Assembly (NCBI GenBank): GCA_934246625.1
Contig: CAKQHZ010000002.1
Location: 1-32,000 of the forward strand
From: an uncultured Alphaproteobacteria bacterium
GTDB taxonomy: Bacteria > Pseudomonadota > Alphaproteobacteria > Rs-D84 > CACZYB01
Direction of reading: 5' to 3'
Length of the DNA: 32,000 nt
In this document: piece by piece, positions 3,310 through 29,463 of the stretch
How the letters are laid out: every line of letters starts with the position of its first letter
Position numbering within the stretch: the stretch's first letter is position 1
Program-made: the position numbers and the translations under genes
The notes under the pieces: model-generated
What the model was told of the DNA's origin: nothing
Seen by the model: only the letters and a program-made list of their open reading frames with translations
Databases searched by the model: none

Positions 3310-3389
3310 AAACTCTCCTTAAATAAGACTTTACACTTAATTAGACTTAGAATATCATATTATATCAGCAAGAAAAAGGAAAGAAAAAT

Positions 3390-3971
3390 ATGTTCGAAGA
3401 ATTAGAAATTGCAAAATCAAAATGTGCAACTTGCACAAAATGCCCCCTTCATAAAACAAAACACAATATGGTATTTTCAGATGGTATTCCAAACACAAAA
3501 CTTATGTTAATTGGTGAAGCACCAGGATATTACGAAGATATGGAGGGCAAACCTTTCGTCGGTCGTTCTGGACAATTACTTGATAAAATATTTGAATCTG
3601 TAGGACTTTCACGTGAAAAAAATATTTATATTTGCAACACAATAAAATGCCGTCCACCAGAAAATCGTAATCCACTACCCGAAGAAAAAATTGCTTGCCG
3701 TGAATATTTAGATGTGCAATTAAACACACTTAAACCAAAAATAATTTTACTTTGTGGAGCAGTTGCTGTTCAATCACTTCTTCCAAATATAAATTCTGGA
3801 ATAACAAAAATTCGTGGACAATGGTTTGATGGTCCAAATGGTGCAAAAATGATGCCAATTTTTCACCCATCTTATTTATTAAGAAATCCATCAAAGGAAG
3901 TTGGCAAACCAAAATGGCTTATGTGGCAAGATATGAAAGAAATCAAAAAAGTTTATGATGAACTTGATTAA
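3390..3971 (+). CDS. uracil-DNA glycosylase, family 4
   Basis: 193 aa. Contains CxxCxL (CTKCPLH), GEAPG, FVGRSGQLL and HPSYLLRN, which are family-4 UDG motifs including the 4Fe-4S cysteines. Confidence 0.9.
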   Translation: MFEELEIAKSKCATCTKCPLHKTKHNMVFSDGIPNTKLMLIGEAPGYYEDMEGKPFVGRSGQLLDKIFESVGLSREKNIYICNTIKCRPPENRNPLPEEKIACREYLDVQLNTLKPKIILLCGAVAVQSLLPNINSGITKIRGQWFDGPNGAKMMPIFHPSYLLRNPSKEVGKPKWLMWQDMKEIKKVYDELD

Positions 3972-3975
3972 AAAA

Positions 3976-3992
3976 TCCCCCATTTCGGGGGA
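3976..3992. terminator. bidirectional hairpin terminator between convergent genes
   Basis: Stem TCCCCC / GGGGGA with a 5-nt loop, A-run upstream and T-rich run downstream. Confidence 0.7.
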
Positions 3993-3999
3993 CTTTCTT

Positions 4000-4380
4000 T
4001 TACTTTGATAATTTTTTAATATTTTTAACTTCAATACTGTCTGCTTCAAACCAATTACCTTTATCAACCTCACCAGTAATTTGAATACTTTCACCCGCAG
4101 AAACAACTACACCATTAAAATCATCATCGTCAATTTCAATTATTATTGTTCCTGTGCCATCATTAAATAAATACTTTTCATCACCCAAAGCACGTTCAAT
4201 AACACCTTGAAGAACAATAATTTCATCATCTTTTTTATTTTTTATATCATCAATAGTTTCAACTGTAATATTTGTTGGTTTAAAAACAAAACCTTCCCCC
4301 TTACCTTTCTTTGCCATTACAGCACCAGAAAGTAAAAGACAAGACATAGCAACCATAAACATAGTTTTTAAATTTTTCAT
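4000..4380 (-). CDS. YgiW/YdeI (BOF) family periplasmic OB-fold protein
   Basis: 126 aa. Signal peptide ending in AVMA|KK. Blocks VLQGVIERALGDEKYLFNDGTGTIIIEIDDD and ITGEVDK are typical of the family. Confidence 0.8.
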   Translation of the reverse strand: MKNLKTMFMVAMSCLLLSGAVMAKKGKGEGFVFKPTNITVETIDDIKNKKDDEIIVLQGVIERALGDEKYLFNDGTGTIIIEIDDDDFNGVVVSAGESIQITGEVDKGNWFEADSIEVKNIKKLSK

Positions 4381-4458
4381 CGAAAGCTCCTTTACTTTTA
4401 TTAAATATAAGATATATTATACTTTAAATAAAAACTCAATCAACTGAAATAAAATCCT

Positions 4459-12794: not shown

Positions 12795-13709
12795 CTATGG
12801 TCGTTCCAACTTTATATTTGATTTTTTATTGGTCATAAAAATCCCCAAAAGAACAAGTATTCCACCATAAATTTGTGCAGGATAAATATTTTCTCCTAAT
12901 AAGAAATAAGCCTCGACCGAGCTAAAAACTGGCATCAAATAATAAATCATACTTGTTTTAAGAGAACCAATTTTTTCCAATGATATATTCCAAAACAAAT
13001 AAGAAAGCACAGAATTAAACAACCCCATACCAACCAAAACCCACACTTCCAAACTATCCCAATGTAAAATCGGATTTATATGATTATCATAAACAAAAAA
13101 TGGAAATATTATAATAACCGCTAAAAATATAGTAAATGAAAGTGTTGTTATTTGAGATAAATCCTTCGGCTTAAATTGTGAAAGCACACTATAAATCGCA
13201 AAAAACAAAGCAAGACACGCCATATACAAATCACCTATTTGAAAGGACAAATCACCCACAGAAATAAATTTTCCATGAAGGATTATTATAATCACCCCAA
13301 CAAAGGAAACAAAAATCCCCCAAAATTGAAATTTTGAAACATAAGTATGTAAAAAGATTCGAGAAAGAATCACAATAAACACAGGCCCCATCACACCAAT
13401 CAAACTCATTTCAACGGCACTTACTGTTTGACCAGCAATATATGAAAAAGTATTCATCAAAACAATACCTGTAAAACTTAACCAAAAAAGAATTTTAAAA
13501 TTTTGTAAAATCTTATCCCAATTTTTAAATACACTTTTAAGGACAAACGGCATTAAAAAAATCGTTGCAAAAAACCATCTGTAAAATGCAATTTGCCAGG
13601 GTGTAAAAACATCTGCAAAATATCTTGCAACAATAACATTAAAACTCCAAAACAAAACCGCAAGAACGGCATAAACATAACCTATAATTGTATTTTTTAT
13701 ATTACTCAT
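12795..13709 (-). CDS. EamA/DMT-family transporter
   Basis: About 10 predicted TM helices with a duplicated EamA-like architecture. ATG 13709 is preferred (AGGTGG Shine-Dalgarno 5 nt upstream) over GTG 13718. It overlaps the upstream outer-membrane-factor gene by 8 nt. Confidence 0.8.
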   Translation of the reverse strand: MSNIKNTIIGYVYAVLAVLFWSFNVIVARYFADVFTPWQIAFYRWFFATIFLMPFVLKSVFKNWDKILQNFKILFWLSFTGIVLMNTFSYIAGQTVSAVEMSLIGVMGPVFIVILSRIFLHTYVSKFQFWGIFVSFVGVIIIILHGKFISVGDLSFQIGDLYMACLALFFAIYSVLSQFKPKDLSQITTLSFTIFLAVIIIFPFFVYDNHINPILHWDSLEVWVLVGMGLFNSVLSYLFWNISLEKIGSLKTSMIYYLMPVFSSVEAYFLLGENIYPAQIYGGILVLLGIFMTNKKSNIKLERP

Positions 13710-15099
13710 ATTTACCACCTATTGCCTTATAAAAAGTAATAATATTTTTATATAAATTTGCATTTGAATTTACCATATTTGTTTGTGCCTCAAGCCTGTT
13801 TTGTTCAGCAGTCAACACATCAGTATATTCAACCAAACCACTTAAATATTTTTTCCACATTAAATAAGAAACCTCACTCATTTTTTGATATGCTAACGAA
13901 GCAGACTTATTGACCTTATACTCTTTATCTATTGCAACAATCGCATTTCGCAATTCTGCCACAGCATTAAGCAAAGTTTGTTCATAATTAACTTCTGCCT
14001 CATCACGTTTTAATTTTTGCACTTCTATATTGTTTCGAAGTTGTGAAAAATGGAACAATGGCAAAACCATTTTTGGGACCAAAGAATGCCCTACACTATC
14101 CCTTTCAATTAAATTAGAAAACTTAAGAGATTGAAATCCCAAAAATCCAGACAAAGAAAACGAAGGATAAACATTTGCCACTGCGACACCAATTTCAGCA
14201 TTTTGCGAAATTAAATTTTCCTCTGCCATACGGACATCTGGTCTGCTTCGAATAATTGACACAGGAAGTCTGTAAAGTTTTTCAACATCATATTCAAAAA
14301 CCCTACTTACCAAATTTTTATTTTCACTTTGCAAAAATTCATCTAAACTTTGCGGTAATTTTCCCAACAACACAGCCAAAGCATTTGCATACATTTCTCG
14401 TTGATATTCAAGCATTGGCACTTGCATTTTCATATTTTCAAGCAAATATTTTGATTGTGAAAGAGTCATTTCATCAACCAAATCAGCATTAAATCGTTCC
14501 GAAATAATATTATAAACATCTTCTTGAAGAAGTATATTTTCACGCATATTTTTAAGATTTTGTTCAGCCATACGCAAATTTATATAATTTGTTGCAATAT
14601 CAGAAATCAATGACACATTAACGTTTTTAAGGTTTTCAACCATAGCTCTATATTGAGCCTTTGAAGATTCAGCCTCTCGTCGTGTTTTACCAAAAATATC
14701 AATTTCCCAAGCCATATCTACACCAATCTGATAATAATCATTTTTAATCAAAGTTTCCATATTATCGGATTCGTTCACATAGTTATATTTTGCACTTATA
14801 TCAAAAGTTGGAAACCCATTTTTCACATCAATTTTTAAAACTTCTCTTGCTTGTCTAAGTTTCAAAATTGCCATTTTCAAATTCGGACTTGATATTTCTG
14901 CATCTTTAATAAGTTGATTTAAAACATCATCACCAAAATCCACAATCATAAAATTTTTTTGATTTTGAAATGGTGTTTGCAAATTCAATGACTTTGAAAT
15001 TTCATCATCTGAAAATAACTTTTCTTGTTTATAATCTGGTCCCACAGAACACGCCATCATCAATAAAGAAGTTAAAAAAGCAAGTTTTGAATATTTCAT
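13702..15099 (-). CDS. RND efflux outer-membrane factor lipoprotein (NodT/TolC family)
   Basis: 465 aa. Lipobox LMMAC followed by SVGPDY, then two OEP-type repeats. ATGA overlap with the RND pump gene. Confidence 0.88.
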   Translation of the reverse strand: MKYSKLAFLTSLLMMACSVGPDYKQEKLFSDDEISKSLNLQTPFQNQKNFMIVDFGDDVLNQLIKDAEISSPNLKMAILKLRQAREVLKIDVKNGFPTFDISAKYNYVNESDNMETLIKNDYYQIGVDMAWEIDIFGKTRREAESSKAQYRAMVENLKNVNVSLISDIATNYINLRMAEQNLKNMRENILLQEDVYNIISERFNADLVDEMTLSQSKYLLENMKMQVPMLEYQREMYANALAVLLGKLPQSLDEFLQSENKNLVSRVFEYDVEKLYRLPVSIIRSRPDVRMAEENLISQNAEIGVAVANVYPSFSLSGFLGFQSLKFSNLIERDSVGHSLVPKMVLPLFHFSQLRNNIEVQKLKRDEAEVNYEQTLLNAVAELRNAIVAIDKEYKVNKSASLAYQKMSEVSYLMWKKYLSGLVEYTDVLTAEQNRLEAQTNMVNSNANLYKNIITFYKAIGGKYE

Positions 15100-18000
15100 T
15101 TTACCTCCTTTACTGACTTATTTTTCAAAGAAAATTTTAAAGCCAAAATATCAAATATCATAAATAAAACTGGCACAAAAATAATTCCAATAAATGTTGC
15201 TAAAAGCATACCAAAGAACACAGTTGTTCCCATTGATATTTGACTTGCTGCTCCTGCACCACTTACAAATAACATAGGGAGCACACCTAAAATAAATGTA
15301 AACGCAGTCATAAGCACAGCCCTAAATCTTTCTCCTGATGCTTCAACAGAAGCCTCCAACACCTCGACACCCTTTTTTCGATAATCCAAGGCAAATTCGA
15401 CAATCAAAATTGCATTCTTACTTGCAAGCCCGATAAGAAGAACCAATCCCAGCTGAGCATAAATACTAAGTGGTAAACCCATAACCCACAAACCAACCAA
15501 TGCTCCAAGCACCGCAAATATTGTTGAAAACATAACTGAAAATGCAATCAAAAAACTTTCATACAAGGCAACCAAAAACAAATAACCAAAAATCGCCGCC
15601 AAAGATATAAGTATCATTATCAAACCTCTGGTTTTCACCTCTTGCAAACTTAATCCAGTCCAAGAAATAGAATAACCATTACCAAGTTTTTGTGCAATTT
15701 TTTCAACTTCTTTTATTGCAGTTCCACTACTTACATTTTCTTGAGATTCTGCGGTAATACCACTACTTAAATACTGATTAAATCTGTAATAAATTTTTGG
15801 GCTTAAAGAAAAAGAAAGCTCGGCAAAATTTTTCACCTGAACAAACTTATTATCCAAAGATTTAATATAAATATTTTTAATATCGTCAAATGATTTTCTA
15901 TACTTATCCTCCGCCTGAATAATAACTTTATTAACCTGACCCAAAAGAACAATATTATTTACATAAGTTGACCCCAAATTGTTATTCAAAACAGAAAAGA
16001 ATGTTGAAAGAGGCACATTAAGAGAAGCCAACTTCACCCTATCAATATCAAGATAGATATGAGGAGTTGATGCCACAAACGGAGCAAATGCAAACTTAAA
16101 TATAGGAGAAATATTTAACTCATACAACAAACGTTCCTGAGCTTTAAACAAATCTTCTGCTGTCAAAGCCTGATTAACAGCATTAAGCTGGAAAGAAAGA
16201 CCACTACTATTTCCAACCCCAGGTATAGCAGGCAAAGAATAAAAATTCACACTCATTCCAACATCAGTTGCATAAAAACTTCTTATCTTGTTCATAATAC
16301 TTTGAAGAGAAAGATTTTTCGTTGTTCGCTTGCTCCAATCTTCAAGTCCAACAACACCCATTCCAATATTTTCACCACTTCCACCCACAAAAGAAGTTCC
16401 CGAAATACCAATAATATATTTTACACCAGGGACCTTTAAAACCTTGTCCGCCATATCCTGTAAAACTTCCTTTGTTTTATTTATACTATCTGTATCAGAA
16501 AGCTGAATATTTGCAAATAAAATACCCTGATCTTCCTCTGGAATAAAAGAAGTAGGAGTTATATAAAAAAGCCCCGCAATAACTCCGCTAACACAAAGCA
16601 AAATTACCAAAGACAATTTAATTTTCTGACAAAAGTATTTAACCACAACCAAATACTTTGATTTTGAATAATCAAGTGCATTATTAAACCACGCGAAATG
16701 ATTTTTAATTTTTAAATCGACATCACTATCAACACCTTTTTTCAAAAATATTGCACATAAAGCCGGACTTAAAGTCAAAGCATTTACTGATGAAAAAGAA
16801 ACTGCCGTTGCAATAGTTATCGCAAATTGCTTATAAATTTCACCTGTTAATCCAGCCATCAAACCAACAGGCACAAAGATTGCAAGCAAAACCAAAGTCG
16901 TTGCAACAACTGCACCACTAATTTCTTGCATAGCCAACACCGATGCAGAAGTTGAATCCATATTTTTATTTTTCATCAAATACTGAACACGTTCAACAAC
17001 CACAATCGCATCATCAACAACCAATCCAATTGCAAGTATCATTGCAAACAAAGTCAAAATATTTATATCAAATCCAAAAAGATATAAAACCGCAAATGTT
17101 GCAATCAAGGAAACAGGTATAGTAATCGTTGGAATAAGCACCGCATAAATGTTTTGCAAAAATATAAATACAACCAAAACCACCAAAACAAATGTTAAAA
17201 GCAAAGTCGAAATAATACTTTCAATAGAAGCCTTAACAAACTTTGTTGAATCATAGGCAATCTCAAATGTCATATCTTCTGGAAATGATTTTTCCAAGGA
17301 TTTCATCTCTGCTTCTAATGATTTCATAATAGTCAAGCTATTTGTATCAGGAGTTTGAGAAAGCCCTAAAATCACACCAGCAGTTCCATTATAACTCGCA
17401 CTAACATTGTATGAATCCGCACCAATATCAACTCTTGCCACATCAGAAAGTCTTACAATTCCACCATCTTTACTTGTTGCAACAATAATATTCTCAAAAT
17501 CCTTTACATCGGAAAGAAGTCCCTTTGCAGTCAATGTCAAAACCAATTCCGTATCTTTATCACTTGGAGCACTTCCAATACTTCCCATTGATGCCTGTAT
17601 ATTTTGTTCTCTAATCGCTTGTATAATATCTTGAGAATTAAGTCCAAGAGAAGTCATTTTATAAGGGTTTATCCAAACACGAATACTATATTGTGGGCCA
17701 TAAACATTTACATCACTAATACCATTTACACGAGACAAAGGATTAACCAAATTTGTATAGGCATAATTACTTAAATACAAATCACTATAGGTATTATTGG
17801 GTGAACGAAGTACAAGCATACCCAAAATATTTGAAGATTGAGTTCTTACATTAAGACCTTCTTTATTAACAACATCTGGTAAAATAGAAGTAATTTGTTG
17901 TAATCGGTTTTGCACCTTTACCTGTGCCATATCGTCATCAACACCAATATCAAAAGTAATAGTTAGCTTATATACACCCCTATCCTCACTGTTTGATGAC

Positions 18001-18239
18001 ATATAAAGCATACCATCAACACCATTGATTGCATTTTCTATTGGCACTGCAACCATATCTTGTAAAACCGAAGCATTTGCACCTGGGTATCTTGCTTCTA
18101 CAATAATTTGTGGTGGCGTAATTTTAGGATATTGTGAAACTGGCAACACAGCTATTGCCATAAGCCCAAACAAAACCATAACCAAGGCAATAACAATAGC
18201 AAATCGCGGACGTTTAATAAAAAAAGCTGAAAAGTTCAT
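15096..18239 (-). CDS. RND (HAE1/AcrB-type) efflux permease
   Basis: 1047 aa. N-terminal FFIKRPRFAIVIAL, a 12-TM architecture and conserved VVDDAIVVVE. Confidence 0.93.
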   Translation of the reverse strand: MNFSAFFIKRPRFAIVIALVMVLFGLMAIAVLPVSQYPKITPPQIIVEARYPGANASVLQDMVAVPIENAINGVDGMLYMSSNSEDRGVYKLTITFDIGVDDDMAQVKVQNRLQQITSILPDVVNKEGLNVRTQSSNILGMLVLRSPNNTYSDLYLSNYAYTNLVNPLSRVNGISDVNVYGPQYSIRVWINPYKMTSLGLNSQDIIQAIREQNIQASMGSIGSAPSDKDTELVLTLTAKGLLSDVKDFENIIVATSKDGGIVRLSDVARVDIGADSYNVSASYNGTAGVILGLSQTPDTNSLTIMKSLEAEMKSLEKSFPEDMTFEIAYDSTKFVKASIESIISTLLLTFVLVVLVVFIFLQNIYAVLIPTITIPVSLIATFAVLYLFGFDINILTLFAMILAIGLVVDDAIVVVERVQYLMKNKNMDSTSASVLAMQEISGAVVATTLVLLAIFVPVGLMAGLTGEIYKQFAITIATAVSFSSVNALTLSPALCAIFLKKGVDSDVDLKIKNHFAWFNNALDYSKSKYLVVVKYFCQKIKLSLVILLCVSGVIAGLFYITPTSFIPEEDQGILFANIQLSDTDSINKTKEVLQDMADKVLKVPGVKYIIGISGTSFVGGSGENIGMGVVGLEDWSKRTTKNLSLQSIMNKIRSFYATDVGMSVNFYSLPAIPGVGNSSGLSFQLNAVNQALTAEDLFKAQERLLYELNISPIFKFAFAPFVASTPHIYLDIDRVKLASLNVPLSTFFSVLNNNLGSTYVNNIVLLGQVNKVIIQAEDKYRKSFDDIKNIYIKSLDNKFVQVKNFAELSFSLSPKIYYRFNQYLSSGITAESQENVSSGTAIKEVEKIAQKLGNGYSISWTGLSLQEVKTRGLIMILISLAAIFGYLFLVALYESFLIAFSVMFSTIFAVLGALVGLWVMGLPLSIYAQLGLVLLIGLASKNAILIVEFALDYRKKGVEVLEASVEASGERFRAVLMTAFTFILGVLPMLFVSGAGAASQISMGTTVFFGMLLATFIGIIFVPVLFMIFDILALKFSLKNKSVKEVK

Positions 18240-18248
18240 ATTAACTCC

Positions 18249-19394
18249 TTACATAGAAGACTCAGGTTTCACATTTTTAATTAAATCACTAGTTGAAAGT
18301 TTATTAAGGATAACTTTATCCCCAACCAATAATCCCTTTGTTATAATAAAATTATTTTCAAATTGCTCACCAAGGACGATAAATACCTTTTGTGGCTTTT
18401 GATTTTCACCAATCACATATACATAACTATCACCATCTTGAAGATACACTGAACTTTGAGGAATAAGTATTACATCTTTTAAATATTTTTCCATTATCAC
18501 ATCGACATAGGCATTGGTATATAAAACTTTATTCGGATTTGAAAAATCAGCAAACACACGCACAGACCCAGTGGAATTTGCAACCTCGTTATCCCAAAAT
18601 TTCACAACTCCAACCTTATCAAATATAATACCATTTGAAAGTTTCAATTTTATATCCCAACCTGAAAAAGGACGTTTTCCATTTACCAACTTAATTTCAT
18701 TCAAATATTCTTTATCTGATATTGAAAATACTACACGAATAGGATTGTATTGAATTATTTTAAGAAGAGCTTGCCCCTGTGGTGAAACATAATCACCCTT
18801 TGAAATATTAACATTTCCAACCATTCCAGAAATAGTTGCCTTTATCACAGTATAATTATAATTGATTTTTGCCTTTTCATAATTTGCTATTGCCTGAGCC
18901 AACTCTGCTTCACTTGATAAAAAAGAAGTTTTTGCATTATCAAGTTCAGTTTTTGAAATCGCTCTACTTCCAGCCTTTATCATACGTTCATAATAAATTT
19001 TTGCATTTTCAAGATTTGCCTTTGCCTGCAAAATTCCAGCATAAGCAGAATCTAAATTTGCCTTATATTCATCTTGACGAATAACAAACAAAACATCATT
19101 AACCTTCACATCTTGCCCACCAACAACTTTTACCTTTTCAATAAACCCAGAAATAAAAGGCAAAACCTCCACCGAATTGATAGGAGAAATAAAACCGACA
19201 TACTTTTTTTGTAATGTAATATTTTGAGGTTCAATATTTAATATATTAACATTCAACAAATTGTCTTGCTTTATAACCTTTTTCAACTTATGAAAGGGGA
19301 AGAAAAAATAAACCAAAAAACAAATAATAACAAATAAAAAAATTCCCCATAAAAGTTTATGATGATTATCATTTTTCATACTAACTTTTTCCAT
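18249..19394 (-). CDS. RND efflux periplasmic adaptor (membrane fusion protein)
   Basis: Start taken at MEKVSMKN (GGGAGG Shine-Dalgarno upstream). One N-terminal TM helix, then lipoyl/coiled-coil/beta-barrel blocks typical of the HlyD_D23 family. Confidence 0.85.
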   Translation of the reverse strand: MEKVSMKNDNHHKLLWGIFLFVIICFLVYFFFPFHKLKKVIKQDNLLNVNILNIEPQNITLQKKYVGFISPINSVEVLPFISGFIEKVKVVGGQDVKVNDVLFVIRQDEYKANLDSAYAGILQAKANLENAKIYYERMIKAGSRAISKTELDNAKTSFLSSEAELAQAIANYEKAKINYNYTVIKATISGMVGNVNISKGDYVSPQGQALLKIIQYNPIRVVFSISDKEYLNEIKLVNGKRPFSGWDIKLKLSNGIIFDKVGVVKFWDNEVANSTGSVRVFADFSNPNKVLYTNAYVDVIMEKYLKDVILIPQSSVYLQDGDSYVYVIGENQKPQKVFIVLGEQFENNFIITKGLLVGDKVILNKLSTSDLIKNVKPESSM

Positions 19395-19492
19395 AAGTTT
19401 CACCCTCCCAAGTTGTATATAACAACTAAGGCAAGGATACATAAATAAAGGATATTATGCAATAATCTGATATTCCTAAGAATAAAAGCAAA

Positions 19493-21948: not shown

Positions 21949-24627
21949 CTATTCAAAAACCTTTAAATCATTCAAAATATTTTTGGGTATAGTATAATCT
22001 TGTTGCCATTCGCTCATATTCCATGGGCGTTTTCCAATATATTGTTCCACAGTTTTGTATAAAATTTTACCCTTGCTAATAAAAAATTCCGCACCTTCTG
22101 AAAACTTAAAAAACTTTCTATCAAAAACTTTTTTATTGCACTTATAATATGCCTTTGAGGAATCAAATCCCGCAAATATCACATCTGCCTCACCCTGACA
22201 AACCTTTTTATACTCAAAAAATTTATTGATAAAGGCAACATTAACACCATTTATGTTTAAAATCTTTTTATCTTCAACACTTGAATTTGATACACCAACA
22301 ACCTTTTTCCAATCATCAATCAACCTTACCGACAAAGGATAAGACGAATTGTTCACAACCTTTATTTGTTTATCGGAAACAATACCAAAAACCTGACCAT
22401 ACTTATTTGCAAATATTGATGGCACAGGAGCCAAAATATACAAATACACCCCACAAACAACAGGAATTATTCCAAAATAACGCCACTTTCTTTGCCAAAT
22501 AAAAAACCACATAATACCAGCAATAATCAAAAGCAATGCCATCATTGACATAGACTTTACATCAAATGAGGCATAAGGCAATCTTGCAACAACTTTTGCA
22601 ACAAAATTGATGGCATCAACCCCAAATTCAGTAATCTTAAGTGGCACATATTCAAGCCCAAATGGAAAAGCAAAAAATGAAAGCAATATTGCTGGCATAA
22701 CAATAATACTGCAAATCGGAATTGCAAATAAATTACCCAACACACTATAAATTTGAATACTATTAAAATGATATATTATAACAGGAGCAATCACCAAACT
22801 TGTGCAAAAGGCAACCAAAATATTCGCCCACACAATATTAACAAAATCAAAAAACTTCTTTTTTACCCCTTCTAACTTATCATTTTTAATAATCCAATAC
22901 TCTCTATATTCATAAAGTTTTATAAGTGTTATCACCGCCAAAAACGACATTTGAAAACCCGCATTGATTAAGGCTTCAGGAGACAACACCAAAATAATTA
23001 TCGCAGTAATAGATAAAAACCTTAATGAAAACGGACTTCTATCAATAAGTATGGCAATAAGTCCCAAAAATATAGTAATAAATGCTCGTTGTGTAGGGAT
23101 TCGTGCACCACTTAAAAGCAAATAAAACGTTGCCACAAACAAAGCAAAAAATACCGCCAACTTTTTTGTATTATAACGAGAAGCAATCGGCATATAAAAA
23201 GCCAACAACAACCTTATAAACAAAAATGCCACACCAACAATAAGTGTCATATGAATACCAGATATCGAAAGCAAATGTGAAATTCCTGCACTGTTATAAT
23301 TTTCAGAAATATCCTTTGGCACAGAATATCTTTCTCCTGTCATCATTGACATAATCACACCAGAAGTATTTTCAGAATTTATCTTTTCAATTCTTTTATT
23401 TATAAAATCTCGCATATTTAAAAATTTGAAATAAATATCTTCAAAATATGTATTCTTTGAAGCAACATTAACCACTTCCCAAGGTTTAGAAATTCTTCCA
23501 CTTGCAGATAATTTTTTATAATAACTATATCTTGCAAAATCAAACCCACCAATAACATTTGGCAAAAATGGAGGAAGCAAAGTTGATTCGAATTTTATAT
23601 AATCCCCAAGCAAAGGAAGTCCAAATTTTTTTGAAACCTTAACCCTAACCTTATCAACCTTTACATCGCTATAATTTAAAATTGAAACCTTATCCACAGT
23701 AAAGCGATAGTCATCATCAAAATATTCCACTTCAATAAGACGACCAACGACCTGAGCATCTTTTAACTTTGAAAATAATAAATTTGTATCAAGCATATTT
23801 GTTCTTAGTTTTATAAGGAAAAATCCAAAAATAAAAAAGAACAAAATAAAATTCACAGAAAAAACTATTTGAACAAACTTTTGAATAACTCGCTTTGGAA
23901 TAAACAAATTTATAAACTTTAAAACCTTTTGTTTTAACTTTTTAAAAAATTTATTTATCTTTTTATGTAAAAATGCAATAAACATAAACAAAGGATTATG
24001 AAAAAACTTTTTTAATATTTTCATCAAAAAACGATAAATATCCTTTGTTTTTCGAAGCAAAAGTTTCCACAACTTTTCACTTTTATCCTTTTTTGAATGA
24101 GAAGTTTTCACAACATCTTTTGAAAAAGAAAATAAAAAAGTTCGCTTAAACCAATTTATAATCGGTGCAAAAATAAACTTAATTCCCTTTAAAATATCCT
24201 TCATCAAAGCATTATCATAAAGCAAAGCAAAATACTTCAAAAACTTTGAATACTCAAAAATCGAATACACCCAACCACCAACCAATAAAAACAAAGTAAT
24301 ATGACCCAACACAGGTATAAAAAATAAAAAGATTGTAAATTTCAAAACCTTTTTCAAAATATATTTAAGTGTAGACCAAGCAAAAATTTTTTTATATTTT
24401 TTAATTTTATCAGAAGAATTTCCAGCATTAAGGAAAATCAAAATAAACAAACTTACCCCAAAAATTGTATTTACAAACCATGATTTAGGTTCATTATACA
24501 AATGGAAATAAAAAGCAATACCACACGAAATAAAAACAGGAATCCATAATGGAAAATTATGAATTTCGCCTGACAAATTTTCAGAAATATAATTAAAAAA
24601 TCGTTTTAACATTTTAATTTTTCCCAA
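21949..24627 (-). CDS. comEC: ComEC/Rec2-family DNA internalisation channel with a Lys-rich N-terminal insertion
   Basis: 892 aa. A DUF4131-like OB region (VVGRLIEVEY..FTVD) and a competence-domain core (GISHLLSISGIHMTL). I see no obvious metallo-beta-lactamase motifs at the C-terminus. Confidence 0.82.
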   Translation of the reverse strand: MGKIKMLKRFFNYISENLSGEIHNFPLWIPVFISCGIAFYFHLYNEPKSWFVNTIFGVSLFILIFLNAGNSSDKIKKYKKIFAWSTLKYILKKVLKFTIFLFFIPVLGHITLFLLVGGWVYSIFEYSKFLKYFALLYDNALMKDILKGIKFIFAPIINWFKRTFLFSFSKDVVKTSHSKKDKSEKLWKLLLRKTKDIYRFLMKILKKFFHNPLFMFIAFLHKKINKFFKKLKQKVLKFINLFIPKRVIQKFVQIVFSVNFILFFFIFGFFLIKLRTNMLDTNLLFSKLKDAQVVGRLIEVEYFDDDYRFTVDKVSILNYSDVKVDKVRVKVSKKFGLPLLGDYIKFESTLLPPFLPNVIGGFDFARYSYYKKLSASGRISKPWEVVNVASKNTYFEDIYFKFLNMRDFINKRIEKINSENTSGVIMSMMTGERYSVPKDISENYNSAGISHLLSISGIHMTLIVGVAFLFIRLLLAFYMPIASRYNTKKLAVFFALFVATFYLLLSGARIPTQRAFITIFLGLIAILIDRSPFSLRFLSITAIIILVLSPEALINAGFQMSFLAVITLIKLYEYREYWIIKNDKLEGVKKKFFDFVNIVWANILVAFCTSLVIAPVIIYHFNSIQIYSVLGNLFAIPICSIIVMPAILLSFFAFPFGLEYVPLKITEFGVDAINFVAKVVARLPYASFDVKSMSMMALLLIIAGIMWFFIWQRKWRYFGIIPVVCGVYLYILAPVPSIFANKYGQVFGIVSDKQIKVVNNSSYPLSVRLIDDWKKVVGVSNSSVEDKKILNINGVNVAFINKFFEYKKVCQGEADVIFAGFDSSKAYYKCNKKVFDRKFFKFSEGAEFFISKGKILYKTVEQYIGKRPWNMSEWQQDYTIPKNILNDLKVFE

Positions 24628-24693
24628 ATAAAATTAAAATATAATCGCAAAACAAAATAAAATCAATAATTTCAATAAAGTTAAAAAAATTAC

Positions 24694-24721
24694 TTGCAAA
24701 CAAAAAGTAATATGATATAAT
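24694..24721 (+). promoter_or_regulatory. promoter of tRNA-Pro
   Basis: TTGCAA (24694-24699), 16-nt spacer, TATAAT (24716-24721), about 20 nt before the mature tRNA 5' end. Confidence 0.55.
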
Positions 24722-24740
24722 ACCTTATGTTTTTTCAAAG

Positions 24741-24817
24741 CGGGGAGTAGCTCAGTCTGGTAGAGTACTAGTTTTGGGAACTAGGTGCCGCAAGTTCAAA
24801 TCTTGTCTCCCCGACCA
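24741..24817 (+). tRNA. tRNA-Pro (anticodon UGG)
   Basis: CGGGGAG-TA-GCTC AGTCTGGTA GAGT-A-CTAGT TTTGGGA ACTAG-GTGCC-GCAAG TTCAAAT CTTGT-CTCCCCG-A-CCA. Perfect cloverleaf with an encoded CCA. Confidence 0.95.
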
Positions 24818-24922
24818 TTTCAAAAAAATCCAATATAAAGTTATTACTCATATTTATTCAAATTTTTTGAAAAGCATTTTAAGCTCTTCTAACAAATCAA
24901 TTCCAGAAATAAAAAAACAAGT

Positions 24923-24953
24923 AAAATAAAAAAATCCCCTTAAAAAGAGGATT
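24923..24953 (-). terminator. intrinsic terminator of the orphan two-gene operon
   Basis: Minus strand: AATCCTCT-ttttta-AGGGGATT (8 bp, one G-U) followed by a T-run. Confidence 0.7.
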
Positions 24954-24976
24954 TATAAAAGCAAAAGGAAAATACA

Positions 24977-25768
24977 CTATTTAATATTTCCCATAACTTC
25001 TTTTAACTTAGAAATATTTAACTTTCTTGCCTTTCTATCAGCATCAATTTTATTTAAAATTTCATTATATAAATCTTCGTCTGAAAAAACTGTTTTTGCT
25101 TTTTTTTCATTCATCAAAGAAAGTTTTGCCATAGTATCAACTGATAAAATTTCACCCTTTGTAAGCTCAGTATGATAAAAAGTTTTATGAAGTTCTTTCA
25201 AAAATCCACTATACATATTTTCTGGGAAAAATGATTTATCTGCAATTTCCTTTGCAAAACTTAAACATTCGCTTGTTGAAAGATTATATCTTTCCTTAAT
25301 AACATATTTGTGAGCAATTCTTAAATAACTTTCAACAGATTCTTTTTTTGTTTTACTTCCCAAATATCCAAGGATTAAACGAATTTTCAAAACATTGATA
25401 AGTTCAGAATAAAAATCACGTCTTGCAACACTTTTTACATCATATTCTTCACCAAAAGCATCAATAAGACTGCCTTTTCTATCAAAAAATCCATTTTCTT
25501 TGTTATAAAGGAAATAATAATCCAAACCACTTGTCAAAGAAATCTTTTTTGCTAACTTATGGCCTATTTTTTTATAAGACAAACTTGCAACTTCAGAATG
25601 GTTTTCGACATTAAGGAAAGCCTTTTTTGGAAATGACAAGGATAATTCACCTTGTTTATTTCGTGAACCATCAGCGTGAAGTTCTATTTCACCAACACCA
25701 TCATCAGAAACACAAAGAATGTTTTGTTCAGATATTTTAATTTTTGGAAAATCAAATTTATAAATCAT
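24977..25768 (-). CDS. hypothetical protein (263 aa), second gene of the orphan operon
   Basis: ATG lies 9 nt after the upstream stop. Its GAGGTG Shine-Dalgarno overlaps that TGA stop codon. No recognisable domain, signal peptide or TM helix. Confidence 0.6.
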   Translation of the reverse strand: MIYKFDFPKIKISEQNILCVSDDGVGEIELHADGSRNKQGELSLSFPKKAFLNVENHSEVASLSYKKIGHKLAKKISLTSGLDYYFLYNKENGFFDRKGSLIDAFGEEYDVKSVARRDFYSELINVLKIRLILGYLGSKTKKESVESYLRIAHKYVIKERYNLSTSECLSFAKEIADKSFFPENMYSGFLKELHKTFYHTELTKGEILSVDTMAKLSLMNEKKAKTVFSDEDLYNEILNKIDADRKARKLNISKLKEVMGNIK

Positions 25769-25777
25769 AATAGCACC

Positions 25778-26803
25778 TCATAAATCTCTACAACCACAAA
25801 GTAGTTTAGTAAATGTAAAAGAAGACCCAACATTATTCAAAATATCTTCTCTTAGTTTTTTATTATCCTTATAAGGAAGAATTTTTATAGAATCCTTATG
25901 TTCTTCATTATATTTTGTAATAACATCATCAACGTGAATACCACGAAGCAAAGCATTCAAAGCAAGTATCAAAGTATCTGGTTCTATATCATCTTCTTTG
26001 AAATGTTGAAAAGTTCTTAATGCTTCAAATATGACATGAGTTTTTGCCCCAACATGATAAAAACAATCCAATGTTGCAATAACTTCACAAATCATATAAT
26101 CATTAACACTTTTATCTTCCAAAGAAGGAATAGGAATATAAATATAGAATTTAAAATCCATATAATTACTATCCTTTACACTAAACTTTGATAAAAATTT
26201 ATATTTTTCAATCAATTCAGGTGTTGTATCCAAATGAAAAGCATTTTTAATATGCACATTTGTTTCAGGAAGTTTAGTTATCAACCCTTTTTGCTTAATA
26301 TTATTAAACTTTTTAACAATTAAATCGGTTTGATGAGTTTCTTCCAAAACCAACTTACCATCTGCATTTGTAATTGGTTGATCATTTTCATCTTTTTTTT
26401 CATAATTATAAGAAATAGTTTTATCATTAAAAGAAGGCTTAGTAAAATCATATTCTTCCTCAAAACTATTTCTATCAATCGGATTAGTAGAAATAAATTG
26501 CAAAAATTCCAATAATTCTTCTACTGTTTTCAATGAAACAGTTGCTCTTACAATATCAAGAATATCAGAAGCATTTTCAATATCATCTTCTTTAAGTTTT
26601 TCCTTCACACGATTAGGAGTCTTTAATGGAACCATAGTTGTGTGCAACTTTGTATTATGAGTTTTTTCAAACTTTTCCTTTAAAATAAGCAATACATAAT
26701 CAAAAATAACCTTAGAATAAACACCATTTTCGAATAAATCTTCGACACTGATATTCTCAGGTTGTATTGGTTTTCCACGTTTTCCAAATTTTATATTTGC
26801 CAT
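25778..26803 (-). CDS. hypothetical protein (341 aa), possibly a RelA/SpoT-like nucleotidyltransferase fold with a large insertion
   Basis: GAGGGTG Shine-Dalgarno upstream. By-eye motif order: LKTPNRVKEKLK, DILDIVRATV, (about 110-aa insertion), YMDFKFYIY, ICEVIATLD...THVIFEALR. Ends in CGCRDL. The fold assignment is weak. Confidence 0.6.
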   Translation of the reverse strand: MANIKFGKRGKPIQPENISVEDLFENGVYSKVIFDYVLLILKEKFEKTHNTKLHTTMVPLKTPNRVKEKLKEDDIENASDILDIVRATVSLKTVEELLEFLQFISTNPIDRNSFEEEYDFTKPSFNDKTISYNYEKKDENDQPITNADGKLVLEETHQTDLIVKKFNNIKQKGLITKLPETNVHIKNAFHLDTTPELIEKYKFLSKFSVKDSNYMDFKFYIYIPIPSLEDKSVNDYMICEVIATLDCFYHVGAKTHVIFEALRTFQHFKEDDIEPDTLILALNALLRGIHVDDVITKYNEEHKDSIKILPYKDNKKLREDILNNVGSSFTFTKLLCGCRDL

Positions 26804-26839
26804 AATAGTTATTACACCCTCATTGAAATATTAAATATT

Positions 26840-26881
26840 TATATAACACCTTTTATTTTATTTGTCAATAGTTTTTGTCAA
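26840..26881 (-). promoter_or_regulatory. promoter of the orphan operon with a duplicated TTGACA
   Basis: Minus strand: TTGACA (26868-26863), 17-nt spacer, TGtTATATA (extended -10, 26848-26840). A second TATTGACAAA copy lies 13 nt upstream (26881-26876). Confidence 0.6.
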
Positions 26882-26891
26882 TATTTTTTTA

Positions 26892-28979
26892 TTATCCAGC
26901 CAAAATATTGCAAACCTGCTCCTTATATCCAAAAAGAAGTAATAAATTTCGCAAATTTTTTCCTCTTTCAGATAATAAATTTTTATCCTTTGCCATAATG
27001 TTTCGCACATCTTGCATAGATGCAAAAAACAAATCTGTATCTTCACTTAAATCAGCAAGCCTAAAATCAATTTGCCCGCTTTGCCTTACACCCAACACAT
27101 CACCAGCACCGCGAAGTTTTAAATCTTCCTCGGCAATAGTAAATCCATTAGTTGTCTTTTTTAACACAGAAAGCCTTGCCCTTGCAAGTTTAGTCAATTT
27201 ATCACTATGAAGCAAAAGACAAGTAGATTTATCGCAACCACGACCAATTCGTCCACGAAGTTGATGAAGAGAAGAAAGCCCAAAACGTTCAGAATGTTCT
27301 ATAATCATAAGGGTTGCTTCTGGCACATTAACCCCAACTTCAATAACTGTTGTTGCAAGAAGTATTTTGATTTTTCCGTTTGGATTAACAAAATCTCGCA
27401 TAACAGAATCTTTTTCTTCCTGTTTCATTTTTCCATGAATAAGGCCAACTTTTTCACCAAAATATTTTTTTAATTTCTCAAATCGGTCAACAACAGCACT
27501 TAAATCCAATTTTTCACTTTCCTCCACCAAAGGACATACCCAATATAACTTTTGTATCTGTCCTGCGGAAAGTCGCATATCAATCAAAGAAATAATTTTA
27601 TCAATTTTTGACATACTCCATAAATTAGTTTCAACTACTTTTCTGTTTGGTGGCATTTCATCAATTATCGATAAATCCATATCCCCAAACGAAGTCATTG
27701 CCAAAGTCCTTGGTATAGGAGTTGCTGTCATAGCAAGGATATTTGACATATTTTCACTTCCTTTATTTGAAAGTTCCAAACGTTGATGCACTCCAAACTT
27801 ATGTTGTTCATCAATCACGGCAAGCATCATATTTTTAAACTCAACATCTTTTTGAAAAAGTGCATGCGTTCCAATAACAATATCAACCTCACCATTTTTA
27901 ATTGCATCAAGTTTTGCCTTTTTAACTTTACCCTTATCACTTCCAGTCAAAAGCACAACCTTTATATTAAAAAGCCCTGATTTTTCAAGTATATCTGTTA
28001 AGGTTTTAAAATGTTGTTCCGCCAAAATTTCTGTTGGCACCATAAATGCACCTTGACCTCCAAATTCAACAACTTCCAACAAAGCAAGTATTGCGACAAT
28101 AGTTTTGCCACTTCCAACATCTCCTTGTAAAAGTCGAAGCATTTTATAATCACTTGCTAAATCTGTAAAAATTTCATCAACGACTCGTTTTTGAGCATTT
28201 GTTAATTCATACCCCAAATTTTTAAGGACACAATTTTTATAAACACCTTTACTTTTAACACAAATACCTTTTTGAGCCTTAAACTTATTTCTTATCACCG
28301 AAAGAGAAAGTTGATTTGCCAACACCTCATCATAGGCAAGCCTTTGCCTTGCAATCTGCCTTAACTTTTCATTTGAAAAATCTGTATGAAGAACCTTTAT
28401 TGCATTTTTAAATGAAATTTCCGCACCATCTTGCCACTCATCAACATCTGGCAAATCCTTTAACACTTGACGAACAAGGTTCACAATCATTTTATTACTA
28501 ATCGCATAAGTCAATGGATACACAGGCTCCATCACACAAACTTCATCGAAATTTTCCACTGGAAATATTTCGGGGTGGGACATACACAATCCACCTGCAA
28601 ATTCTTCTATTTTTCCACTTATACAAATTTTTTTACCAACTTCCAATGCCTTTTTCTGACTATCATAAATTTGAAAAAAATTAAGAGTTATAAAACCTGT
28701 TTCATTTGAACAAAGGACCTTATACGGAACTTTTTTACCTCTTATAAATGGCGAAGGAATATGCTTTACAACATCAACTTTTAATGTGGCGACTTTTCCA
28801 ACTTCACAATTTGAAAGTGATGGAGAATACGTTCTATCAATAAATCCAGTTGGAAAATGAAATAACAAATCAAACACCCTCGCCTTACCAAGAAGACGGA
28901 CCAATCCCTTATTAAAATTGGGACCCACACCTTTGAAATTTTCAAGAGGTTTAAAAAAATATAAAAAATCGTTATTCAT
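26892..28979 (-). CDS. recG: ATP-dependent DNA helicase RecG
   Basis: Start taken at MNNDFLYFF (GAGGA Shine-Dalgarno upstream). Wedge/OB N-terminus, helicase motifs GDVGSGKT, DEQHKFG, TATPIPRTL and QLRGRIGRG. Confidence 0.92.
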   Translation of the reverse strand: MNNDFLYFFKPLENFKGVGPNFNKGLVRLLGKARVFDLLFHFPTGFIDRTYSPSLSNCEVGKVATLKVDVVKHIPSPFIRGKKVPYKVLCSNETGFITLNFFQIYDSQKKALEVGKKICISGKIEEFAGGLCMSHPEIFPVENFDEVCVMEPVYPLTYAISNKMIVNLVRQVLKDLPDVDEWQDGAEISFKNAIKVLHTDFSNEKLRQIARQRLAYDEVLANQLSLSVIRNKFKAQKGICVKSKGVYKNCVLKNLGYELTNAQKRVVDEIFTDLASDYKMLRLLQGDVGSGKTIVAILALLEVVEFGGQGAFMVPTEILAEQHFKTLTDILEKSGLFNIKVVLLTGSDKGKVKKAKLDAIKNGEVDIVIGTHALFQKDVEFKNMMLAVIDEQHKFGVHQRLELSNKGSENMSNILAMTATPIPRTLAMTSFGDMDLSIIDEMPPNRKVVETNLWSMSKIDKIISLIDMRLSAGQIQKLYWVCPLVEESEKLDLSAVVDRFEKLKKYFGEKVGLIHGKMKQEEKDSVMRDFVNPNGKIKILLATTVIEVGVNVPEATLMIIEHSERFGLSSLHQLRGRIGRGCDKSTCLLLHSDKLTKLARARLSVLKKTTNGFTIAEEDLKLRGAGDVLGVRQSGQIDFRLADLSEDTDLFFASMQDVRNIMAKDKNLLSERGKNLRNLLLLFGYKEQVCNILAG

Positions 28980-28996
28980 AATTTTCCTCAATAAAA

Positions 28997-29025
28997 ATAA
29001 TAACATAAAATAAAGGCAAGGTCAA
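28997..29025 (-). promoter_or_regulatory. putative recG promoter
   Basis: Minus strand: TTGACC (29025-29020), 17-nt spacer, TATTAT (29002-28997). Confidence 0.5.
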
Positions 29026-29086
29026 CAAAACCACTAGCATAAAAATTTTTATTTTACTTTTAAAGAATCTATGTTATATTGAATAT

Positions 29087-29202
29087 CAGATATAGCACAT
29101 AGCTATGTTTAGTATCAGTGTATAGCGATACGGAGCTGTCAGAAGCTTTAATTAGACAGGGTATGAAATAACCATCAGATACTCTTGCAGTATCTTTTTT
29201 TT
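29087..29202 (+). ncRNA. candidate ~115-nt sRNA in the merR-recG spacer
   Basis: Extended -10 TGtTATATT at 29072-29080. Intrinsic terminator AGATACT (29177-29183) / AGTATCT (29189-29195) followed by a T-run through 29202 (the stem's last t plus 7 more gives T8). Internal hairpins such as CTGTC/GACAG at 29136-29140/29155-29159. No ORF longer than 10 codons. Confidence 0.4.
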
Positions 29203-29463
29203 ATACCCAAAGCCCCAGCCTTTGTTGGTTGGGGAGCTGTAGTCATACAACAGGAATATTGTCCCTATATAATATTCTAAAAGCTACAAAGTCATTGTCT
29301 AATATGATTTCTGAACTGCCCGACCACTATCTTTGATACGTGGAATTATTTTTATAAAGGGGGTAGTAAAAAATGTAATGTCTGTGGAATAATAAACTTA
29401 TTACAAAAATGAAAGTATAGACACTATGATAGATAGAAAAATAAATAAACAAACTAACAAAAC

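Follow-up and report, generated by a model that had tools for sequence, protein, structure and literature searches.

A recG-linked gene pair of gut Alphaproteobacteria combines a highly diverged RSH synthetase-fold protein with a translationally coupled partner

The window analyzed here is a stretch of 32,000 nt, positions 1 to 32,000 of contig CAKQHZ010000002.1 from an uncultured alphaproteobacterium, and our subject is a pair of adjacent genes on its minus strand, gene 1 and gene 2. The product of gene 1 is a far-diverged member of the superfamily of RelA/SpoT homolog (RSH) synthetases and has the SYNTH alpha/beta nucleotidyltransferase-like fold. Its motifs place it nearest to the highly active and toxic alarmone synthetases of the Apk1/Tas1-SaEAS (RelV-like) branch. 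With moderate confidence, we assign gene 1 to a new RSH subfamily and gene 2 to a new partner family. As to function, we lean tentatively toward a chromosomally fixed nucleotide pyrophosphokinase resembling the toxic small alarmone synthetases (toxSAS), accompanied by its cognate inhibitor or regulator. Both open reading frames (ORFs) are genuine genes; homologs exist, and purifying selection acts on them within the species. They were placed as follows:

25778..26803, minus strand: gene 1, a 341-aa divergent RSH synthetase-fold protein (ORF list, AlphaFold2 model, hhalign)
24977..25768, minus strand: gene 2, a 263-aa partner, probably of a new family (ORF list; no family or PDB match)

Family and fold of gene 1

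An earlier note on this DNA, made from the sequence alone, had described two ORFs of 341 and 263 aa that it could not place in any family. Indeed, neither gene 1 nor gene 2 was placed by Pfam, PADLOC, NCBIfam, or PHROGs, and gene 1 did not match Pfam PF04607 or NCBIfam RelA_SpoT even at E ≤10. Weak PHROG and DUF7332 matches (E >0.006) were dismissed as noise. Homologs of gene 1 were found in 12 clusters at 35 to 99% identity among 5.8 billion proteins, and an exhaustive profile search of 1.84 billion representatives gave a family of 40 representatives at E ≤1e-3, 12 of them at <1e-30.

The AlphaFold2 model of gene 1, built on the family alignment, had a pLDDT (predicted local distance difference test score) of 86 and a pTM (predicted TM-score) of 0.86. 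When this model was compared with the PDB by Foldseek, 23 of the top 23 matches were RSH synthetases, with a probability of ~1.0, E values from 7e-5 to 1e-2, and TM-scores (target) of 0.48 to 0.63. These matches included RelP (6EWZ; E, 7e-5), CapRel (7ZTB; E, 1.7e-4), RelQ (5DED/5DEC), and Tas1 (6OX6; E, 3.9e-3), as well as small alarmone synthetase (SAS) proteins of S. pneumoniae and S. mutans; in a library of viral structures, the matches were annotated as RelA/SpoT or YjbM. The best matches, RelP and RelQ (SAS1/SAS2), reached TM-scores of 0.54 to 0.63 over the target and have the same core topology as gene 1. Unlike gene 1, they carry the canonical motifs R-x-K-x3-S-x3-K, D-x2-G-x-R, G-Y-x-S-x-H, and E-I-Q-I-R-T, they match PF04607, and they have no conserved coupled partner.

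Among the PDB sequences, the best match to the gene 1 family profile was Tas1, with an E value of 0.88 when the profile contained 13 sequences and of 0.013 when it contained 22. This match spans PLK-x3-R-x3-K...LD-x-x-R-x-T of the gene 1 family. Independently of it, SaEAS (8VX3) was matched over two further elements, the E-V-x strand and the T-H-x3-E-x2-R helix. The 22-sequence family alignment was then compared by hhalign with 23 toxin domains of the Apk1/Tas1 family taken from File S3b of Ahmad et al. 2025 (PMC12691689). Probabilities of 94.5 to 95.4% (P, 5e-9 to 8e-8) were obtained, whereas the controls, reversed and ten column-shuffled templates, gave ≤0.3%. Together with the fold matches, these values bear out the RSH-like fold that the earlier note had suspected from strings resembling RelA/SpoT motifs.

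Six of the 29 remote relatives of gene 1 match PF04607 below threshold in a consistent register. These sub-threshold matches, which include RSH proteins with tetratricopeptide repeats (TPR), serve as a consistency check and not as proof. Among the remote relatives are four proteins of 600 to 950 aa from outside the window (P0042, P0045, P0046, and P0047), related to the N-terminal half of gene 1. In these fusion proteins, long TPR arrays are joined to a divergent RelA_SpoT-like domain that matches PF04607 below threshold, and this architecture is reminiscent of sensor-effector conflict proteins.

Apk1/Tas1, the (p)ppApp synthetase of a P. aeruginosa type VI secretion system (6OX6), and SaEAS (8VX3) have the SYNTH fold in common with gene 1. 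In Tas1 and in gene 1, K-x3-R-x3-K is followed after 13 residues by D-x-x-R-x-T, with the same spacing. Apk1/SaEAS and gene 1 also have in common the tyrosine on the acceptor strand, the glutamate strand, the H-x3-E-x2-R helix, and a partner in the downstream position of an immunity gene. If gene 1 were, like Apk1/Tas1, an effector delivered to competing bacteria and gene 2, like Tis1, the corresponding immunity protein, these best sequence-level relatives, the gene order, and the divergent alleles at a fixed locus described below would fit well. However, the identity between gene 1 and Apk1/Tas1-SaEAS is only ~15%, and gene 1 has no signal peptide and no PAAR/LXG/MIX or other delivery domain; nor is there a secretion-system gene in the window or in any of ~15 related loci, and in the window and the related loci alike the genes around the pair are housekeeping ones. 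The signature motifs of the gene 1 family are also absent from the published survey and lists of Apk1 homologs. Furthermore, gene 1 differs from Apk1 in its insertions, with 50 to 110 aa added ahead of the acceptor strand and none of the Apk1-type helical insertion behind the glutamate strand; a Gln of Apk1 is replaced by Ile and Asn370 by Lys, and gene 2 has no detectable relation to Tis1. We consider a secreted effector-immunity pair highly improbable.

Predicted active site and acceptor

In the 22 aligned sequences, which include relatives down to 22% identity, eight residues of gene 1 are invariant (D83, R86, F189, E240, H256, R263, Y298, and N299) and a further eight are near-invariant (K61, R65, K69, Y214, D216, K218, T255, and E260). 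Within the close family, the stretch from N213 to Y220 is almost wholly invariant. Most of these residues fall into the following segments:

26597..26623, minus strand: K61-x3-R65-x3-K69, predicted clamp for the ATP triphosphate on the basic helix after beta-1; aligned to Tas1 PIKSRERAMQK
26540..26557, minus strand: D83-x-x-R86-x-T88, predicted Mg2+-binding Asp and ATP-binding Arg; aligned to Tas1 KDLARNT
26270..26485, minus strand: acidic/Lys-rich variable insertion that separates the Asp and acceptor strands, residues ~107 to 178 (reaching to ~200)
26144..26164, minus strand: Y214-M-D216-F-K218-F-Y220, predicted acceptor-site (G-loop) strand with the Tyr that would stack the acceptor base (conservation, alignment)
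26015..26086, minus strand: E240-V-I-A-T strand (the ExQ equivalent) and T255-H256-x3-E260-x2-R263 helix (conservation, alignment)

The four motif strings that the earlier note had picked out coincide with these conserved catalytic motifs. It had also remarked that the spacing of the D..R motif did not match the canonical one exactly; this mismatch is resolved by the D-x-x-R of the Apk1/SaEAS type (SaEAS D121/R124; PMC12691689). D83 and R86 align to D121 and R124 of SaEAS, and R86 aligns to R330 of Apk1. In SaEAS, the D121A exchange inactivates the enzyme and R124, the counterpart of Apk1 R330, binds ATP (PMC12691689). E240 aligns to E182 of SaEAS and E382 of Apk1, both of which bind ATP (PMC12691689), and the whole region from E240 to R263 aligns to FEVQ...TTHKLYEEQR of SaEAS and EIQV...GHKYYEDWR of Apk1. 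Y214 aligns to the tyrosine of GYSGVN in Apk1. FaRel2 has a basic clamp made up of R64/K66/K74/R77, and its tyrosine for the acceptor base is Y128 (PMC11782079); K61/R65/K69 and Y214 of gene 1 are analogous to them.

From these alignments, a reaction can be proposed for gene 1. ATP would be bound as the pyrophosphate donor: K61, R65, and K69 would form a clamp around its triphosphate, D83 would hold Mg2+, and both R86 and E240 would make contact with ATP. The beta-gamma pyrophosphate would then be moved to the 3'-OH of a purine nucleotide that is stacked on Y214, beside a Lys-rich patch (K200, K211, and K218). The predicted product is a nucleotide of the (p)ppApp or (p)ppGpp type.

Gene 1 departs from the canon at two of these sites: Ile242 replaces the Gln of ExQ, and Lys218 occupies position Y+4, where canonical SAS have His and Apk1 has Asn. 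The insertion of about 110 aa that the earlier note had pointed out (residues ~107 to 200) is real and varies in length across the family, from 0 to ~110 aa; members of 297 to 306 aa lack it altogether. It is the most variable part of the protein, with 3 to 38% identity in this segment, and it sits in the substrate-specificity region, where the AlphaFold2 model shows beta-hairpins and a helix. The exchange of ExQ to ExI, the Lys at Y+4, and the large variable insertion, along with the lack of any Pfam or NCBIfam RelA_SpoT match, would be in line with an RSH-fold protein of altered catalysis (a pseudoenzyme, or an enzyme whose transfer chemistry or acceptor is different), which would have a structural or regulatory role together with gene 2. 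On the other hand, conservation across the family is strongest at the residues for donor ATP, Mg2+, and the acceptor, as is expected of an active pyrophosphokinase and not of a pseudoenzyme. Such an altered protein is, in our estimation, improbable.

If gene 1 is active, the acceptor could be a nucleotide or, as in some toxSAS, tRNA. Gene 1 is not a basic protein; it is acidic to neutral in most lineages (isoelectric point [pI], 5.6 to 8.2), and conserved lysines (K200, K211, and K218) lie near Y214. By the charge-patch argument (PMC11782079), the combination of a Lys cluster at Y214 with a nonbasic pI favors a nucleotide over tRNA as the predicted acceptor. A toxSAS that targets translation by modifying tRNA would be consistent with the presence of CapRel among the best structural matches (E, 1.7e-4; 335 aligned columns), with the bicistronic toxSAS-like layout, and with the long N-terminal helix that is packed before the core, as in tRNA-binding toxSAS. 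Against this stand, apart from the pI, the Lys cluster beside Y214, which is arranged as in alarmone synthetases and unlike FaRel2, and the motifs, which are of the Apk1/SaEAS type and not of the CapRel type. The TM-scores to CapRel are low (0.37 to 0.38), PADLOC gave no match although CapRel models are included in it, and the chromosomal position is fixed and not part of a defense island. We give tRNA modification only a slim chance.

Coupled partner gene and promoter

The partner is homologous across lineages and present in 12 of the 13 lineages that have gene 1. Where it is present, the two genes are separated by gaps of 2 to 14 nt or overlap by 8 nt. In the window, the TGA of gene 1 (25778-25780) is located within the Shine-Dalgarno sequence of gene 2, GAGGTG (25775-25780), 9 nt before the ATG of gene 2; the translational coupling is present in the sequence just as the earlier note had described it. 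The same holds for the promoter, which is moreover conserved across the carriers, and for the intrinsic terminator of the pair, a 10-bp stem with a T-run at 24954..24932 (minus strand). The elements that delimit the transcription unit are as follows:

26840..26881, minus strand: promoter block, with an upstream TTGACAAA at 26874-26881, a second TTGACAAA as the -35 region at 26861-26868, and a TG-extended -10 region, TATATA, at 26840-26845 (sequence)
26815..26821, minus strand: Shine-Dalgarno sequence of gene 1, GAGGGTG, 11 nt 5' of the ATG (sequence)
25769..25780, minus strand: coupling junction between gene 1 and gene 2, with the 9-nt gap (sequence)
24922..24954, minus strand: intrinsic terminator of the pair, 10-bp stem, 3-nt loop, and T-run (terminator scan; hairpin at 24954..24932)

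Hairpins with T-runs were also found 3' of gene 2 in three other carrier loci (L002, L004, and L041).

This organization resembles that of the toxSAS modules FaRel, FaRel2, PhRel, PhRel2, and CapRel (PMC7229694), which likewise encode a small RSH synthetase in an operon of two tightly coupled genes that has a promoter and a terminator of its own. A conserved bicistronic layout of SAS genes like that of toxin-antitoxin (TA) systems has been taken to indicate toxicity (Jimmy et al. 2020, PMC7229694). Since the coupled layout is kept in 12 of 13 lineages, the pair falls under the computational criterion of toxicity used in that study (PMC7229694), and the two-gene, toxSAS-like arrangement that the earlier note had drawn attention to is a conserved one. 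In contrast to the toxSAS modules, the pair is fixed beside recG in all sampled members of the clade instead of being patchy or mobile, its 263-aa partner is outside the known antitoxin classes, gene 1 is recognized by neither PF04607 nor PADLOC, and one lineage has no partner.

The gene 2 family comprises only 6 clusters in a profile search of the 5.8 billion proteins, and a profile search of the PDB sequences gave no match. Its AlphaFold2 model is weak (pLDDT of 61 overall); the beta domain at the N terminus reaches ~80, whereas the C-terminal helices are ill defined. The Foldseek matches of this model in the PDB (Qbeta coat protein, CorA, and the DnaK substrate-binding domain) were of low probability and scattered and were rejected. 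An HD/SAH-type hydrolase signature is lacking in gene 2. Its conserved core (Y65, F86, G93, F95, F119-Y120, K128, L133-G134-Y135, H153, and P182) is still recognizable in the partners of distant gene 1 relatives, including one from an organism with 58% GC (guanine-plus-cytosine) content. The protein is basic in seven of nine lineages (pI ~9). We propose that gene 2, being translationally coupled to gene 1, most likely holds the enzyme inactive through direct binding, in the manner of a type II antitoxin or an immunity protein. Some trigger would free the enzyme, which would be toxic when uninhibited.

The pair would be transcribed from its own conserved, strong promoter, and the intrinsic terminator would close the unit. 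Read on the minus strand from 26881 to 26840, the sequence upstream of gene 1 is TATTGACAAAAACTATTGACAAA, 17 nt, and TGtTATATA, with TTGACA at 26863-26868. A generic promoter scan did not list this promoter because its -10 region ends in A and thus lacks the final T. Promoter-like sites in this AT-rich region are not enriched (19 observed versus 14.8 expected). In view of this and of the miss by the scan, the credibility of the promoter rests on its conservation across lineages. Indeed, every spacer between recG and gene 1 that we examined in a carrier contains TTGACAAA-N4-5-TTGACAAA followed by TATAtt, including those of lineages whose proteins are only 30 to 45% identical. Seven carrier loci have the exact tandem TTGACAAA pattern, each a single time and in this same spacer, compared with 0 of 29 recG loci without the pair, and TTGACAAA as such is not over-represented in the window (4 copies versus 5.1 expected).

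The starts of the two TTGACAAA boxes are 13 bp apart, and a -10 region follows at the proper distance only in the case of the second. Conservation of the first box is just as strong, which points to a site bound by a protein and not to another promoter. The tandem boxes are a candidate site of autoregulation, and the basic gene 2 product is a candidate for the protein that binds them.

Chromosomal position and evolution of the pair

The carriers are uncultured Alphaproteobacteria from gut and rumen, known as metagenome-assembled genomes; only 4 of 185,579 species representatives have the pair. In all nine lineages whose upstream flank is visible (the window, L001/L006, L002/L003/L008, L004, L005, L007, GCA_016648615, L041, and L047), gene 1 is directly preceded by recG, whereas the genes upstream of recG vary and may be priA, merR, or a CSD gene. 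Loci were also ascertained independently, through RecG instead of gene 1. None of the 29 metagenome loci obtained in this way has the pair; the nearest RecG of a noncarrier is 49% identical over its full length, compared with 58 to 69% for carriers. From the synteny in the carriers and the absence of the pair from all RecG-ascertained loci, it follows that the pair is clade specific and positionally fixed and is not an orphan insertion. In this organism, the pair does not appear to be mobile cargo but has a fixed chromosomal place throughout a clade of gut and rumen Alphaproteobacteria. The pair is also present outside the clade, in L046 (67-2063; 58% GC) and in L048 (462-2472; 37% GC, with the 8-nt overlap and with recG not the upstream neighbor), and can thus move as a unit over long evolutionary times.

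The earlier note had seen in the pair an orphan accessory cassette that had landed at tRNA-Pro, and this view had to be given up. What varies is the site between the terminator of gene 2 and tRNA-Pro. The two sides of the pair were placed as follows:

26892..29006, minus strand: recG, the upstream neighbor of gene 1 (gene call)
24891..24912, no strand: strain-variable insertion point and boundary of the module, between the gene 2 terminator and the 3' flank of tRNA-Pro

tRNA-Pro(tgg) itself, at 24741..24817 on the plus strand, is convergent with the pair and was the sole match above threshold when positions 24600-27100 were searched with Rfam. At ~24891/24912, strains 99% identical to the window have ~1.2 kb with a CDF cation-efflux gene and a CsoR-like metal repressor (L042, 8703-9904), which the window lacks. 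In other lineages, the cargo between terminator and tRNA-Pro consists of ADP-ribosylglycohydrolase, carbamoyltransferase fragments, His_Phos_1, or DIT1_PvcA genes. An integrative element at the tRNA gene was considered and rejected: neither an integrase nor an att duplication was found in the neighborhood in the window, as the earlier note had already stated, all strains and lineages carry the pair, and the polymorphism concerns another segment, at 24891/24912.

Several further observations were made on the flanks. ADP-ribosylglycohydrolase genes are located a few kilobases downstream of the pair in L004 (11184-11978) and L005 (3267-4052), and a small DUF4223 ORF recurs near the pair in several loci. 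The spacer between merR and recG is strain variable as well (window, ~29036-29451); L042 has two extra genes there (3229-4403), encoding a DUF8003 protein and a 140-aa ORF, that are absent from the window. RecG of the window is 704 aa long when counted mechanically from the first ATG and 695 aa in near-identical strains, and its true start is probably 9 codons downstream of the first ATG. As the earlier note had it, the neighborhood is one of housekeeping genes (recG, comEC, marC, genes for CoA-transferase subunits, fabH, plsX, and the gene of a MerR regulator). There is also an RND-type efflux operon downstream of the CoA-transferase genes (window, 13702-19442), which encodes an outer-membrane factor, a 1047-aa transporter, and a membrane-fusion protein and is syntenic in L005 and L006. 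The DNA around the pair has a GC content of 32%. The values for gene 1 (26.7%) and gene 2 (27.3%), compared with recG (33.6%) and comEC (28.7%), do not amount to a strong compositional anomaly.

Gene 1 and gene 2 have not evolved like the genes around them. Their pairwise identities, calculated on gap-free columns, are correlated with each other (Spearman coefficient, 0.78; P = 6e-4; 15 pairs), whereas neither is correlated with the identities of RecG (gene 1, 0.29, P = 0.30, not significant; gene 2, 0.49, P = 0.065). For example, the window is nearest to L041 in RecG (69%) and ComEC (68%), yet it is L041 whose gene 1 (26 to 32%) and gene 2 (23 to 26%) are the most distant. L001 and L002 are 71% identical in RecG and 33 to 42% in gene 1, whereas the window and L001 are 63% identical in RecG and 54 to 58% in gene 1. 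Thus, gene 1 and gene 2 co-vary but diverge out of step with RecG and ComEC, which is not core-like behavior. Within species, the ratio of nonsynonymous to synonymous polymorphism (pN/pS) is 0.18 to 0.24 for both genes and 0.10 to 0.13 for RecG and ComEC, and synonymous divergence resembles that of the flanks. Within the limits of a small sample of nonindependent pairs, the pattern is in keeping with a locus that stays in place while its alleles are episodically replaced or diversify. Such replacement or diversification is common for toxin-immunity loci. The earlier note had named a fixed position combined with core-like behavior as the outcome that would speak against its proposal; the position did prove to be fixed, but sequence evolution did not prove to be core-like.

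A fixed position next to recG could also mean that gene 1 is a nontoxic housekeeping or regulatory SAS of this lineage, with gene 2 as an activating or sensing partner, and that the vertically inherited pair is tied to recG and produces a nucleotide messenger under replication or DNA damage stress. In favor of this are the position after recG, which is kept in 9 of 9 lineages despite differing genes upstream of recG, a spacer between recG and gene 1 in which no terminator was detected in the window, purifying selection within species that is close to that of the flanks, and a lineage (L047) that keeps gene 1 without gene 2. There is also a precedent for an RSH gene beside recG. The spoT operon of E. 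coli (gmk-rpoZ-spoT-trmH-recG) ends with recG, and (p)ppGpp interacts genetically with RecG. The two arrangements are alike in the physical linkage of an RSH-family gene to recG, but in E. coli, the long bifunctional SpoT is encoded upstream of recG in the same operon, whereas a divergent short RSH protein with its own promoter is encoded downstream of recG here; the likeness may be coincidental. In the literature, we found nothing that links SAS and recG in Alphaproteobacteria. The own conserved, strong promoter of the pair argues for expression independent of recG, gene 1 and gene 2 diverge out of step with RecG and ComEC, and the pair is also found away from recG (L048) and in a 58%-GC organism. 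Moreover, the nearest sequence relatives are toxic synthetases, the known housekeeping SAS (RelP/Q/V) match PF04607, and we know of no housekeeping SAS with a conserved coupled partner of the gene 2 kind. On balance, a recG-tied housekeeping synthetase, the chief alternative to the function that we prefer, is possible but rather unlikely. We regard as quite unlikely the more specific idea that recG, gene 1, and gene 2 make up an unrecognized second-messenger system of gut Alphaproteobacteria, in which a clade-fixed, noncanonical RSH enzyme (ExI strand, Lys at Y+4, and large insertion in the specificity loop) makes an alarmone or an unusual pyrophosphorylated product, is controlled by its new partner protein, and is functionally coupled to RecG-dependent processing of forks or DNA damage, and which is not a selfish TA system.

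The toxSAS-like pyrophosphokinase with a cognate inhibitor or regulator is the function that we prefer, and several points weigh against it. TA and defense genes are typically patchy, and a fixed position is unusual for them; this pair is at one chromosomal position in every sampled member of the clade. PADLOC gave no match for either protein at E ≤10, so the defense system suggested by the earlier note found no support there. No known antitoxin class (SAH, pZFD, Tis1-like, or Panacea) was recognized in gene 2 with Pfam, NCBIfam, PADLOC, or PHROGs, its fold model is weak, and 263 aa is large for an antitoxin. With Ile242 and Lys218 at the predicted active site, the chemistry or the substrate of gene 1 could differ. 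The correlation statistics come from nonindependent pairs of only 6 or 7 lineages, and purifying selection within species is nearly core-like. Finally, L047 (499-1797) contains recG, an intact gene 1-like gene (P0021, 432 aa), and a convergent dnaE but no partner gene. The catalytic residues of P0021 are intact, and the protein has a C-terminal extension of ~90 aa. A solo gene 1 is hard to reconcile with an obligate toxin unless the extension substitutes for the partner; perhaps P0021 is a variant that is self-contained or regulated in cis.

RSH enzymes have a central place in bacterial stress signaling, and toxic relatives act in TA systems, phage defense, and interbacterial killing. The gene pair described here adds, at the moderate confidence given above, an RSH subfamily that is invisible to standard annotation by Pfam, NCBIfam, and PADLOC, plus a new partner family. 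Its pattern is unusual in that a fixed address anchored to recG and a conserved promoter are combined with alleles that are out of step with the genes of the host. If the enzyme is toxic, an entire clade of uncultured gut bacteria would have domesticated or fixed a toxSAS-like module; a nontoxic enzyme would instead suggest a new link between alarmone-type signaling and DNA repair.

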